DNA of 64,000 nucleotides, taken from an uncultured Chlamydiae bacterium (GTDB lineage Bacteria; Chlamydiota; Chlamydiia; Chlamydiales; JAJFMB01). The stretch is taken from contig CAVOJR010000001.1 in the NCBI GenBank assembly GCA_963696295.1, forward strand, positions 2,144,001 through 2,208,000. Reading direction: 5' to 3'. Position 1 is the stretch's first letter, and the number at the start of each line of letters is the position of its first letter. Shown here piece by piece: positions 19,234 to 24,048 of the stretch. The notes under the pieces are model-generated. The model was not told where the DNA came from and did not search any database. It saw nothing but the letters and a program-made list of their open reading frames with translations. A program made the position numbers and the translations under genes.

Positions 19234-22056
19234 TTAGCGTACAATCGCCTTGATCTCTGAGGGGGAGTTGCCTTTCCTCTTCAAACGCTTCACAAATTCG
19301 GCCTTGGCTGCTCCACTTTTAAGCTGTCGATATTCGGATTGAAGATTGATTTGATCGCGTTTTTCTTTCAACTTTTTGTAAACTCCACCGAGTCCGTAAG
19401 AGTAAAAGCCTGATCTCAAGCCCTGTCCAAGCAGCGACCCCACACCGAAACTGATGGTGCTGATAGGGACTTTGAAGCCTACAAGGAATTCAAGCGCATT
19501 TTGAATTTCTGTACCAACAACGGCCGCAAGAACAGTTCGAATGAATTTGTTTTCAGGAAGCGTTTTGTCGATCATTTCCATAGCTTTTTCTATGAATCTT
19601 TCTTCGGATACATTCTCTTTGGCATCGCGGACCATTTGCTCGGCCACTTTCTTGCCCTCAGAGCGCATTTTGTTGAGGTCGGATAGTTCCACCCCGCCTT
19701 CACTCGCAATTTGCCTTAAACGCGTTTCTGTGGGGTTTTTGGCGTATTCTTTGAGAAGCTGATCCAACACTCTGACTTTGATGTCAAAAAGCTTGTTTGC
19801 GCGTTGGTCGAGGGCCTCCATTGTCTTCTTCTGCTTGATGAAGTCTCGTTGGAAGGCTTCCAAGTCAGGTCTTAGGCTTTTCAGGATCTGCTTTGTGATG
19901 CTAGCTCCCGGCTGTTTCAGCGCATACAATTGGCTGACGCGGTCCAGCTGGCGTCCCGCCTTTGCTCGGTTGATTTCCTCGTTCTTACGAGTTAGCTTAA
20001 ACGCATTATTCAGGTATTCCAGTTCTTTTGCTGCTGTCTTGTATGCTTTGGAGCGCTTAGATACGCCTTCCAGTGCTGATGTTTTTTCTTTGATGGATGT
20101 CTCTGCCTGCTTCAAAAAATTGCTGTATGCTTCTTGGTACGCGTCCAGCATCCGGACATAGCGATCGCGATAAGGGGCTTCCGGTAGTTTGCCTTTTTTG
20201 AGCAGTGATTCAAACTCATGGATATACTTAGTATCGCGTTCAAACATGCGCTGCCATTCTTTGGCCGTCTCCCCTTCAGGGTTGCGAGCCGCTTCTTCCA
20301 ATTCCGCCATGTGCTTTTCGATTGGCTCTTTGAGGGCTTCTTTGCTGAATGGCTCAACGCCCTTTTCCGCTATGGCGATCAGGCTCTTTTGCTTTTTCTG
20401 AAGGTCGACGAGCTCCTCCTGCTTGGAGCGAAGTGCGCTTTCATAGAGCTTGCGATCTTTAGCGCGGGGATCCTGGGCAGCACCTTCCAGGGCGGTGATA
20501 TCCTCACCGGCGCGGTCTATTAGCGTTTGCAGCTGTTCAGCTCCTTCTTGGGCCTTTTGTCTCTTTGCCTGCTCTTTTTCGGTAAGGGGCCGCATTTTCG
20601 CTGCTTCTTTTTTCCGCTCACCCTCCAGCGTCTCCTCGATAGGACGTTCAGCCAGGGCCTCTGCTGTTGCTCTTGGCTCAGGGGTTTTGATGTTGCGCAA
20701 GGTCTCCATCACGCTTTTGGCTGTCTCTCTTTCTGGTCCGATATAGCTCTTGGTGACGTCGTTGATGATGCGCTCCACCTCTCTGACATCCGATGCGTCC
20801 ACCCCCTGGGCCTTCATCTCTTTCGCCACATCTCGGGCGATCACCTCCGGCTTTTCCCCGGTCATCCTGATCGCATTCTCTACTCTTTTCATCGCCTTGG
20901 GGACTTTTCCCGCTACATTCATCCCGAGAATCATCGCAAAAGTGTCGGCTATCTCTCCGGAAGTGGGCAGTTCGCCTTTTGCTGCTGCTTTAGCGCCAAG
21001 TAAACCTGTACCCTCTATCGCTGTTTTCAGTGCCGCTTCTGGCGCTTTGCTCTTCTCTATGAGTTTTTTCAGCTGCGGAGAGGCGGCTTTTAATGCGGGG
21101 AGAGCTTCACCTAAGATAGAGAAAATAGCGCCTTCTGTCGCACCTGATAGGCCCTCTTGTGCTATTTTATTTCCCGACCGGATAAAATCCTCAAAGCTTC
21201 CTTCAAAACCGCGCGATTGCCATTGATGATATTCGGTAAGCGCCTGGTCAAGTACGGCCGGTAAACCTAATGCTCCAGCGCCTCCTCCGACAATCCCTCC
21301 GGCTGCTGTACCAAACGGCCCAACAGTGGAACCTAACGCGGACCCAGCCTGGGCGCCCAGTGTGCCACCAGCGGCGTAATAAGGTATGTTTCCAGCGATA
21401 CCACCCGCTCCGTGCATTAGCCGTTCAAGAAAATTAGCCTCTGGGCCTAATGCGGTGGCCTTTTCAAATTCTTCTGCTGGCATGCCTCCCAGTATCGCGG
21501 GTATGCGGCCGGAAATAGAGCCCTTCAGCCCTTTTTGGAAGGGAGATAAGACCCCCTCGCCCTCAGCTGCTGGCGCTGCCCCTCCCGCCTGCTCTCCACC
21601 AGCATATCTTTCGGGCGACTGAAACTCCTTAATCGCCTGCAAAAGTGCCTGCTCTTGGCCCACATGGGGAGCTAGAGCATTGGCGCGGTTCATCAAGGCT
21701 TCCCACTCATCCAGGCCGATTTGACTAAGCTGGTCATTATCGAAGCCCAAGTTTTTAAAATAGCCACTGATGTCTTTGATGGTGAGCGGTTCAACCGGTT
21801 TCGGCTGCTTGAAATTCTCGACGGCGATCAGTCTTTGAATGGTCGGATCGAGATGCTCGAAATTAGGTACACCAAGCTGCTCTCCATAGCTGCGCATCGC
21901 CTGGGCCCTCTGCTGCTGAGCTGCTTGTTGCTGCTTCATCTGCCCCAATTGGGCTAGCTGGGGCAACATCTGACCCGTCGACCCTGCTCCAGCTGCCGCG
22001 CCTCCGAGTAAAGATTGTAGAAAGCTTTGTTCTCGATTCCGCAAAACTTGGACCAT
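19234..22056 (-). CDS. Large Gly/Ala/Gln-rich helical protein, putative DNA-ejection/internal virion protein
   Basis: 940 aa with GGAAAGAG and a Q-rich N-terminus, a glycine-zipper hydrophobic stretch and long coiled coils; co-oriented downstream of terminase. Confidence 0.45.
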   Translation of the reverse strand: MVQVLRNREQSFLQSLLGGAAAGAGSTGQMLPQLAQLGQMKQQQAAQQQRAQAMRSYGEQLGVPNFEHLDPTIQRLIAVENFKQPKPVEPLTIKDISGYFKNLGFDNDQLSQIGLDEWEALMNRANALAPHVGQEQALLQAIKEFQSPERYAGGEQAGGAAPAAEGEGVLSPFQKGLKGSISGRIPAILGGMPAEEFEKATALGPEANFLERLMHGAGGIAGNIPYYAAGGTLGAQAGSALGSTVGPFGTAAGGIVGGGAGALGLPAVLDQALTEYHQWQSRGFEGSFEDFIRSGNKIAQEGLSGATEGAIFSILGEALPALKAASPQLKKLIEKSKAPEAALKTAIEGTGLLGAKAAAKGELPTSGEIADTFAMILGMNVAGKVPKAMKRVENAIRMTGEKPEVIARDVAKEMKAQGVDASDVREVERIINDVTKSYIGPERETAKSVMETLRNIKTPEPRATAEALAERPIEETLEGERKKEAAKMRPLTEKEQAKRQKAQEGAEQLQTLIDRAGEDITALEGAAQDPRAKDRKLYESALRSKQEELVDLQKKQKSLIAIAEKGVEPFSKEALKEPIEKHMAELEEAARNPEGETAKEWQRMFERDTKYIHEFESLLKKGKLPEAPYRDRYVRMLDAYQEAYSNFLKQAETSIKEKTSALEGVSKRSKAYKTAAKELEYLNNAFKLTRKNEEINRAKAGRQLDRVSQLYALKQPGASITKQILKSLRPDLEAFQRDFIKQKKTMEALDQRANKLFDIKVRVLDQLLKEYAKNPTETRLRQIASEGGVELSDLNKMRSEGKKVAEQMVRDAKENVSEERFIEKAMEMIDKTLPENKFIRTVLAAVVGTEIQNALEFLVGFKVPISTISFGVGSLLGQGLRSGFYSYGLGGVYKKLKEKRDQINLQSEYRQLKSGAAKAEFVKRLKRKGNSPSEIKAIVR

Positions 22057-22134
22057 GATTAAACTCCAAAAAAACAGCTAAATTAAATCCTTAATTTTAC
22101 AACAAACGAGGTGATATTGCTAGAAAATAGTAAA

Positions 22135-23642: not shown

Positions 23643-24048
23643 GTGTTTGATTGTCCTGTGAAATTTGTTCTCGATCCCAGCCGATGTCTTTGAAAATATT
23701 GCGCATTATGACCGTCCATACCGTCGGAGATCCGCCTTTATATCGACCCCTCATAAGCTGATTTCCATGCTCCATCCAGACCTTATAACGTGCTGATTTT
23801 GCTTGTTGCATCTTGATGGACGGGAACTCATTAGGGTTTTCTTTAATGTATCGCTCCATGGTGTCCCAGCTTACGGAATGGGTCGGATGATCGAAGAAAA
23901 AGGCCTCTTTCGGTAGACCGGATGCTATGTGAGCACAATATTGCCGGTAAGCTTCCTGTCTGACATCCGCGTCTTTAAGCTTAACCCCTCTTTTATTGCC
24001 GAGGGGTGGCGGCGGATAATTGCTTTTAAATTTTTTTGTCTCTGTCAT
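23557..24048 (-). CDS. Probable terminase small subunit
   Basis: 163 aa overlapping the terL start; N-terminal GNK motif, HTH-like segment, W...MRN..GWD C-terminal pattern. Confidence 0.6.
   Translation of the reverse strand: MTETKKFKSNYPPPPLGNKRGVKLKDADVRQEAYRQYCAHIASGLPKEAFFFDHPTHSVSWDTMERYIKENPNEFPSIKMQQAKSARYKVWMEHGNQLMRGRYKGGSPTVWTVIMRNIFKDIGWDREQISQDNQTHVKRLAANIRGDALTEAEDGDSAEQCEN

Follow-up and report, generated by a model that had tools for sequence, protein, structure and literature searches.

Packaging genes in a chlamydial island

The 64,000-nt stretch analysed here (hereafter the window; positions 2,144,001 to 2,208,000 of contig CAVOJR010000001.1, from the uncultured Chlamydiae bacterium assembly GCA_963696295.1) carries a 17,260-bp island bounded by two 62-nt attachment-site (att) direct repeats at a tRNA-Leu gene. 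The left repeat (13070..13131, plus strand) holds the 3' part of the integration target, tRNA-Leu(taa), located by ARAGORN at 13042..13125 (plus strand), and the right repeat lies at 30268..30329 (plus strand); the two copies are identical at 61 of 62 positions. Within the island four uninterrupted open reading frames (ORFs) follow one another on the minus strand, as an earlier reading made from the letters of the window (hereafter the sequence-only reading) had described: a small terminase gene, terS (23557..24048, 163 amino acids (aa)), a large terminase gene, terL (22329..23642, 437 aa), a 61-aa ORF (22135..22320) and a gene for a 940-aa predicted ejection (internal virion) protein (19234..22056). 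Throughout, chlamydial genomes are designated by G numbers (G000 being the genome of this island), contigs by C numbers and the loci that were read by L numbers.

Head and tail genes do not accompany this packaging module. Pfam and PHROG searches identified no portal, capsid or tail gene among the 21 ORFs of and beside the island, and PF16510, PF04860 and PF05065 had no match in G000 (97.4% complete, 2 contigs), with positive controls. Profiles of podophage portal, capsid, scaffold, adaptor, nozzle and gp7-sized genes gave no six-frame match in G000 at E<=1, whereas the control profiles of TerL, TerS and the 940-aa protein recovered their own genes; the phrog_1357 search was run without a positive control. 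The portal, scaffold, capsid, adaptor, nozzle and tail fibre of a P22-like prophage were likewise not found in G000. The absence of a portal gene after terL and of a capsid gene, reported earlier for this stretch, thus extends to the genome. The accompanying premise that a portal gene usually follows terL has to be qualified, since it does not always come directly after terL even in the source phages: in the podophages L136 and L145, which carry close TerL proteins (45-49%), terL is followed by tail-fibre or ejection genes on the opposite strand. The 61-aa ORF, which has a GGAGG ribosome site, showed no match in Pfam, PHROG, PADLOC or NCBIfam and no homolog among the compared loci; that it might be a portal remnant was rejected, as no similarity was seen.

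The terminase genes

The large terminase is of the PBSX/Terminase_6 type (PF03237, E 1.4e-13; phrog_2, 1.8e-43; TIGR01547, above cut-off). An alternative start at 23609, provided with a GAGG ribosome site, would yield a protein of 426 aa and was judged more likely. The Walker A (G33-K39) and Walker B (D126-E127) motifs, the T153-T154-N155 coupling motif and the nuclease residues D245, D308, H386 and D389 are invariant in a five-sequence alignment, confirming that the ATPase and nuclease motifs are intact. The 163-aa ORF has no match in Pfam, PHROG or NCBIfam and has 54 homologs besides itself. Its predicted model (pLDDT 80) was closest in the VIA search to the Sf6 TerS 3hef_A (Z 7.8, root-mean-square deviation 5.8, 115 aligned residues; next match Z 5.5), and Foldseek placed the Sf6 small terminase at ranks 2-3 with non-significant E. 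Homologs stand directly upstream of terL in 13 of 13 IMG/VR loci, in seven of which a P22-type portal is visible in the fetched DNA. Identification of this ORF as TerS, already suggested by the sequence-only reading, is supported by predicted fold and gene position.

Two side observations concern terminase genes of phages. In L117, L121, L123, L146 and L154 the terL product is ~755 aa long, ~320 aa above its relatives, possibly owing to inteins, and a gene with a Tad2-like anti-defence domain lies between terL and portal in G149:C102 (L033:2857-3411).

Podophages of chlamydial genomes and the 940-aa protein

Podophage capsid matches were obtained in 11 of 401 genomes, G000 not being one of them. 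Near-complete P22-like podophage genomes are present in, or binned with, chlamydial genomes at G149:C102, G395:C145, G251:C19, G302:C10 and G284:C1 (~50000-75000). G149:C102 is a 35.5-kb circular relative with a 99-nt terminal overlap, and the island, at 17.3 kb, is about half that size. G284:C1 is a 137-kb host contig that contains a full podophage module, its terL split, between flanking genes 33-70% identical to genes of G000, which indicates that podophages have entered chlamydial chromosomes. The portal of the source podophages is P22-like (PF16510, E 1.5e-77), their capsid matches phrog_1357 and their nozzle profile matches PDB 8zkk, 'nozzle gp16' (E 3e-7).

Homologs of the 940-aa protein share 25-55% identity overall; four full-length database homologs stand at 33-55%, and further homologs are encoded at eight viral or metagenome loci (L039-L046) and in a 31-kb contig of a chlamydial bin (G395:C145). 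In all nine of these contexts the gene follows one encoding 174-206 aa, itself preceded in eight of them by a ~165-aa gene and the nozzle gene (L045 begins too late to tell), and scaffold, capsid and adaptor genes stand further upstream where the DNA reaches. The succession of nozzle, ~200-aa gene and large genes is that described for the podovirus ejection-gene operon, the members of which are often recognised from nothing but size and synteny (PMC8954989). Elsewhere in this phage group two genes share the slot, of 366 and 448 aa in G149 and of 241 and 719 aa in G124, and the first of the two products starts with M-V-Q/S-(V/I)-(L/I)-x..(F/L)G..LG, as does the 940-aa protein. A profile of nine homologs matched the G124 241-aa protein weakly at residues 1-77 and two LPD38 proteins at residues 173-434 (E 2e-22 and 2e-20), LPD38 being described as phage-type (PMC5512222). 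Given the two-gene slot, the shared N-terminal motif and these profile matches, the 940-aa protein has the look of a single chain in which the second and the third ejection protein are apparently joined, with a gp20-slot-like N-terminus and a gp16-slot-like body.

The composition of the protein (Ala 12.2%, Glu 10.4%, Leu 9.6%, Lys 9.1%, Gly 8.9%, Gln 6.3%) agrees in part with the earlier description of a Gly/Ala/Gln-rich helical protein. The predicted model is all-helical, with an unstructured N-terminus and coiled coils; the enrichment is regional, Gln being abundant in residues 1-100 only and Gly and Ala mainly at ~100-400, and the remainder is a Glu/Lys/Ala-rich helix. Hydrophobic segments at 245-274 and 841-877 are predicted to be membrane segments. 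A Foldseek search of the PDB with the model, proposed earlier as a check, returned nothing at E<=0.001. VIA found generic hairpins at 490-567 only, the best PDB sequence match was a designed repeat protein (E 0.0016), the best ESM Atlas match scored 0.88 with low recognition (an LPD22 cluster reached 0.85), and there was no match in INPHARED and none to a non-virion family in Pfam, PHROG, PADLOC or NCBIfam. Weak matches to tape measures were considered and discarded, the source phages being equipped with a podovirus nozzle. We infer an ejection role from gene order, sequence features and the LPD38 links; as no solved structure was matched, the assignment is a positional one. What stands of the proposed ejection-like nature is therefore the sharing of the protein with podophages at the position of an ejection gene, a context that fits, and what failed to appear is a structural counterpart.

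The same data bear on a non-virion use by the host, either as terminase-driven transfer of host DNA (of the lateral-transduction or gene transfer agent type) or with the 940-aa protein as a secreted chlamydial effector. The G+C content at third codon positions (GC3) of the 940-aa gene (0.53) is near the host median (0.56), and an unstructured N-terminus, coiled coils and the ankyrin cargo of related islands would suit an effector. However, the element is modular, bounded by att repeats and patchy in its occurrence, a capsid was not found in G000, every full-length homolog whose context is known is a phage gene, and columns conserved in the phages are retained over the full length of the protein. 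Domestication is to our mind the least probable of the explanations considered.

Phylogeny and selection of TerL

A TerL tree of 56 rows was computed by a quick method with approximate likelihood-ratio (SH-aLRT) support only, using the best 45 of 80 loci and leaving out viral-locus rows >520 aa or <380 aa. The island TerL forms one clade with those of G276, G088, G243, G197 and L112 (SH-aLRT 100, stem 0.7), nested among portal-bearing podophages, the sister clade being of the L140/L143/L116 type. No portal was seen in any of the six members, so that the phylogeny suggested beforehand as a check yields a portal-less clade among phages that have portals. L112, an 11-kb IMG/VR sequence, is island-like, with an integrase, ParA, a primase, terS (67%), terL (50%) and, at the contig end, the start of a gp7-slot gene.

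The identity of terL at first, second and third codon positions is 0.54-0.66, 0.65-0.75 and 0.33-0.37 respectively, and 0.21-0.29 at fourfold sites. Retention of conserved columns is 76 of 83 for the 940-aa protein, the best of 9 rows, and 35 of 36 for TerS. The ratio of nonsynonymous to synonymous rates (dN/dS), another check proposed earlier, is not estimable because synonymous sites are saturated: codon-model values of 0.002-0.02 and the associated tests were discarded as meaningless, with branch lengths saturated as well. The codon-position pattern is that expected of purifying selection, and judged by it terL does not look decayed. Neither relaxed selection in terL nor a non-virion family for the 940-aa protein was found, the two observations that the sequence-only reading had named beforehand as telling against it.

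Related islands without portal genes

G000 carries a second such island at tRNA-Tyr (C1:2640419-2658274; L034, L035), 17.86 kb long between 54-nt repeats, with a primase and no portal. Its TerS/TerL pair is unrelated to that of the tRNA-Leu island and is accompanied by 358-aa and 1479-aa LPD38 ejection-type genes. For TerL of the tRNA-Tyr type, 62 of 401 genomes from the phylum gave a match, in many cases a fragment. We read the best 28 loci outside G000, of which five had <3 kb of downstream DNA and 23 were informative (>=3 kb). Portal and capsid are missing from 22 of the 23 (21 genomes, 8 families), the remaining one, G014 (41% identity), having a portal. A further 88 ORFs of 240-900 aa from these loci and three window-type loci included no portal or capsid by Pfam or PHROG, one NUDIX-domain match to a portal PHROG having been set aside. 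Ten of the loci are bounded by 42-247-nt direct repeats and measure 10-24 kb. In a tree of this second TerL type the outgroup branches are very long, and it gives no decision on monophyly. Pattern scans of genome contigs, and of viral contigs with the one TerL as query, found nothing. A third integrase island of G000, at tRNA-Thr(cgt) (C1:1453891-1474540; L036), comprises ~20.6 kb between 46-nt repeats and holds helicase and primase-like genes, no terminase being seen.

Only three of the 22 portal-less relatives (G388, G095 and G322, the last with a frameshifted terL) carry ejection-type genes. G095:C140 occupies the same tRNA-Leu site as the window's island and has in common with it the integrase (52%), the second integrase-like gene, DnaB and the 543-aa gene described below; it carries a different TerS/TerL and different ejection-type genes, homologs of which are found in G251:C19, a full phage. 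Across the relatives, TerS and TerL are repeatedly combined with replication modules of several types. TerS plus TerL without a portal is accordingly the core of these elements, fitted to several replicons, and the ejection genes are accessories drawn from more than one phage lineage. The sequence-only reading proposed that a whole terminase plus a DNA-delivery protein would be a different hijacking strategy; the cassette does belong to an att-bounded island without head genes, and terminase and ejection gene do not make up one fixed cassette.

These comparisons allow us to weigh whether the island is a decaying podophage prophage that lost its portal-to-nozzle genes by deletion. The order terS, terL, ejection gene is indeed the phage order minus its middle, a deletion of this kind is seen in G124:C25 and broken copies are frequent. 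Yet the remaining island genes (two integrase-like genes, DnaB, the Rep-like gene, iterons and the superfamily-2 helicase) have no counterpart in the G395 and G149 phages, and the TerLs without a portal make up a deep clade in which synonymous sites are saturated and reading frames intact. The same backbone and att site, moreover, carry another terminase and other ejection genes in G095:C140, and the island ejection gene has an AT-rich upstream region of its own, whereas its phage homologs are coupled to the preceding gene. Decay appears distinctly improbable on these grounds.

The cargo found after terL in relatives (type I restriction, Shedu, AbiEii, YhcG and Fic, as well as ankyrin and resistance-like genes) raises another possibility, namely a defence island in which TerS, TerL and the ejection protein act mainly as dominant-negative decoys that spoil the packaging of a podophage or render its particles non-infectious, the island spreading rarely or by other routes. 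The long branch of the island TerL would fit an arms race, and PLE, a satellite, reportedly interferes with its helper at the packaging motor. Against this, all catalytic ATPase and nuclease residues are kept, which a decoy would not need, and intact integrase, att and replication modules recur together with TerS and TerL, as expected of elements that replicate and are packaged. We consider the decoy explanation unlikely.

A site upstream of the ejection-type genes

The two terminase-bearing islands of G000 are 85% identical in DNA over 144 nt comprising the upstream region and first codons of their ejection-type genes. This region includes a 20-nt AT-rich site (22081..22100, minus strand, 5' of the 940-aa gene) that is identical in both islands, these being the only two sites in G000 at <=3 mismatches. 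The site is roughly palindromic (TGTAAA-N13-TTTAC-like, 22075-22100), and similar sites precede the portal genes in G149, G395, L123, L143 and L124 as well as phage scaffold genes. The motif occurs before 12 of 28 phage portal or scaffold genes against 3.2 in shuffles, the pattern having been chosen post hoc and the phages being related and hence non-independent. A matrix learnt independently from the phage portal and scaffold upstream regions has its best site in the island at 22081..22100; 95 sites in G000 score as high, sites of this kind are common in host intergenic DNA and four other islands score poorly. The motif bears only a loose likeness to the Euo consensus as that is described (PMC4989314). 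It is a possible late-gene control site or helper late promoter, which we mention as a lead.

Proposed function of the island

The att repeats, the intact genes, the phage origin of TerS, TerL and the 940-aa gene, the lack of head and tail genes, the long-lived portal-less TerL clade and the many att-bounded relatives are established. An element with its own packaging motor and no capsid, portal or tail is likely to spread inside borrowed phage particles. We propose, with a probability of about 0.68, that the island belongs to a satellite family whose own terminase packages its DNA into the procapsids of podophages and which adds an ejection protein of its own to them. It is probably functional.

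The following sequence of events can be envisaged. Infection of the chlamydia by a P22-like podophage would prompt the island, integrated at tRNA-Leu, to excise and replicate, and its TerS and TerL would then cut island DNA and pump it into empty procapsids of the helper. In the lack of a portal or capsid of its own, the island TerL would have to work on a foreign portal and may dock on that of the helper, and concatemers, perhaps dimers, would fill full-size heads. The 940-aa protein would be loaded into these heads through the shared N-terminal motif; on infection it would be ejected and form the inner section of the DNA channel, alongside which the gp7-sized outer-membrane protein of the helper would be used. 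The reason we prefer for carrying an ejection protein, and the weakest step of this scheme, is that it might allow escape from blocks on the helper's injection channel. SieA of P22 is described as blocking injection via gp20 and gp16 (PMC10883804), and P22 channels as open to complementation between particles (10.64898/2026.09.03.749273).

Several observations weigh against this proposal. No helper phage was found in G000, and the capsid matches in other genomes are mostly on binned contigs that are possibly misassigned. In the TerL clade, downstream DNA can be read over several kb in G197 and G088 only; G276 and L112 stop at or near a contig end, and G243 and G088 are partial. The terminal branch of the island TerL is 0.76 as against 0.11-0.25 in its clade, and the protein keeps 96 of 109 conserved columns, the second lowest of 32. 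Broken terL genes occur in G243, G202 and G322 and TerL fragments are many across the genomes, and in the G124:C25 prophage a deletion has removed the head module and joined terL to a gene further along. Ejection-type genes are absent from 19 of the 22 portal-less relatives and are hence unneeded for persistence of the family; nor is it a rule that gp7 is never carried, since a gp7-slot gene follows terL in L112. As to the 940-aa protein, its model is poor globally (pTM 0.31) and was built from nine sequences, its top BFVD match is a large polyvalent protein (E 5.7e-7 with a TM of 0.17), and GC3 of the phage homologs of its gene is 0.25-0.37 versus 0.53 in the island.

A wider proposal, which we put forward tentatively and hold to be rather doubtful, is that Chlamydiota host a widespread, undescribed satellite family with a full motor and no head, in which TerL docks on P22-like portals and some members substitute inner ejection proteins of their own, whereby satellite-filled particles could cross the chlamydial envelope past helper-specific exclusion.

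Comparison with known systems

Gram-negative phage-inducible chromosomal islands (PICIs), in the SatelliteFinder definition given in PMC10085698, resemble the island in having an integrase at a tRNA, att boundaries, a replication module, TerS, cargo after the packaging genes and no tail genes. The island differs from them in its own terL, a DnaB/Rep/iteron replicon, an ejection-type gene and the failure to find a capsid-morphogenesis gene, and its 17.3 kb compare with a median of 9.5 kb. With the capsid-forming PICIs (cf-PICIs) of the same account it shares TerS and TerL of its own taken from phages, with the differences that no capsid, portal or head-tail adaptor/connector was found and that the source phages are P22-like podophages. 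The island is thus PICI-like in its working and falls outside the definitions given there of both PICIs (own TerL) and cf-PICIs (no capsid or portal). VEIMEs (integrative mobile elements encapsidated in virions; PMC9618062) are capsid-less elements that reach 16.8 kb and are packaged into full-size heads as concatemers, and they offer a model for 17.3 kb in a 35-kb head; they are described as having TerS and motor-like ATPases and leaving TerL to the helper, and that account, as far as available, does not mention ejection genes. Described satellites accordingly either borrow TerL (PICIs, PMC10085698; VEIMEs, PMC9618062) or carry it along with a portal and capsid of their own (cf-PICIs). Where a satellite has TerL and no portal, that TerL has to cross another phage's TerL-portal interface, which raises a question on the specificity of packaging motors.

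For the delivery protein, the nearest parallels are PLE11 of Vibrio cholerae (PMC12987554) and the EPIPs (PMC12822802), capsid-borrowing elements that supply their own tape measure. That of PLE11 is described as entering virions, being required for transfer and escaping a block on the helper's (PMC12987554). These elements replace a long-tail tape measure, whereas the island has a podovirus-type ejection protein and a full terminase; its own ejection protein would extend the PLE11 idea to short-tailed phages. Likeness to gp7/gp20/gp16 of P22 and gp14/gp15/gp16 of T7, as these are described (PMC8954989, PMC10883804, 10.64898/2026.09.03.749273), lies in the slot after the nozzle and ~200-aa genes, the helical character, two hydrophobic segments, a basic C-terminus and fast divergence; the differences are the lack of a sequence or fold match to solved members and, in this lineage, the joining of the two later slots in a chain of 890-990 aa.

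A literature search, with most subscription papers and supplements outside its scope, returned neither a satellite that lacks a capsid and has TerL or ejection proteins nor a chlamydial island of this kind; the VEIME and tycheposon gene tables may bear on this. To our knowledge, the cultured phages of Chlamydiota are microviruses only. If the wider proposal is true, tailed double-stranded DNA phages and their parasites would be active gene carriers in obligate intracellular chlamydiae, and the islands and P22-like phages point to an unrecognised flow of defence and ankyrin cargo between obligate intracellular bacteria.

Other genes of the island

Chlamydial plasmid iterons are 22 bp long. In the island, three perfect 22-nt tandem repeats (18806..18871), detected by repeat search and putative origin iterons, adjoin a 543-aa putative replication protein (17174..18805, plus strand) that has no match in Pfam, PHROG, NCBIfam or PLSDB and 25-28% identical homologs after dnaB in the islands L076, L086 and L093. 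Upstream of it lies a DnaB-like helicase gene (15664..17181, plus strand; PF03796, E 5e-88, and PF00772); dnaB, the unassigned 543-aa gene and the iterons stand in place of the primase of a PICI primase-replicase module, and relatives of the island carry primases. Together with the integrase-like gene preceding dnaB, this row (14290-18871) recalls the chlamydial plasmid core of Pgp7/8, Pgp1 and Pgp2 as described in PMC7846284; the phage genes noted there on chlamydial plasmids, a terminase and tail-tip protein L, are of the long-tailed type and unlike those of the island.

Next to the left repeat are a tyrosine integrase gene (13149..14300, plus strand; PF00589, E 1.3e-33, with R/HxxR/H/Y motifs in sequence) and the second integrase-like gene (14290..15201, plus strand; PF00589, E 5.6e-5, below cut-off), whose product has no visible HxxR...Y end and has same-slot homologs in L092 and L093. 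An 87-aa ORF (15273..15536, plus strand), possibly an excisionase or regulator, has no Pfam or PHROG match and homologs in L092 (E 9e-21) and L093 (E 5e-26). Beyond terS, a 128-aa ORF (24061..24447, minus strand) also precedes terS in related islands (38% in L093, 46% in L112) and is followed by 168-aa and 79-aa ORFs (24543..25266, minus strand) with weak homologs in other islands and no notable family match, the 79-aa product being possibly an excisionase or AlpA-like regulator. A superfamily-2 helicase gene (25428..27185, minus strand; PF04851, E 3e-29; phrog_16) has homologs beside terS in L092, L080 and G197. A single-strand binding protein gene (27243..27641, plus strand; PF00436) precedes a serine resolvase/recombinase and a double HTH_17 excisionase-like gene (28985..30075, plus strand; PF00239, PF07508, PF12728). 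As an AlpA/MerR/Stl regulator beside the integrase, of the kind that PICIs have, the 87-aa and 79-aa ORFs, both without family match, come into question, the HTH_17 gene sitting at the far end. PADLOC gave only generic helicase and HTH matches, and a promoter and terminator scan performed no better than on shuffles. The island is adjoined by gapA and a gene of the GrgA family, a chlamydial marker.

Traces of similar elements are present elsewhere. Host dnaB (G000 C1:1164057) is 79% identical over 311 nt to the 5' end of island dnaB, and broken relatives of the island with ssb and 124-aa and 147-aa genes occur at G000 C2:23600-25570 and C1:392260-393750, the former, on the 135-kb second contig, additionally holding part of an integrase gene and a copy, 54 nt long, of the tRNA-Leu att site. 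At L015 (G243:C16:19244-29350) an integrase fragment lies directly 5' of the C-terminal half of terL, followed by a 2918-aa ORF, and at L019 (G124:C25:3651-5084) terL is cut after about residue 350 and continues in frame with a later tail gene, the portal, scaffold, capsid and adaptor being gone.

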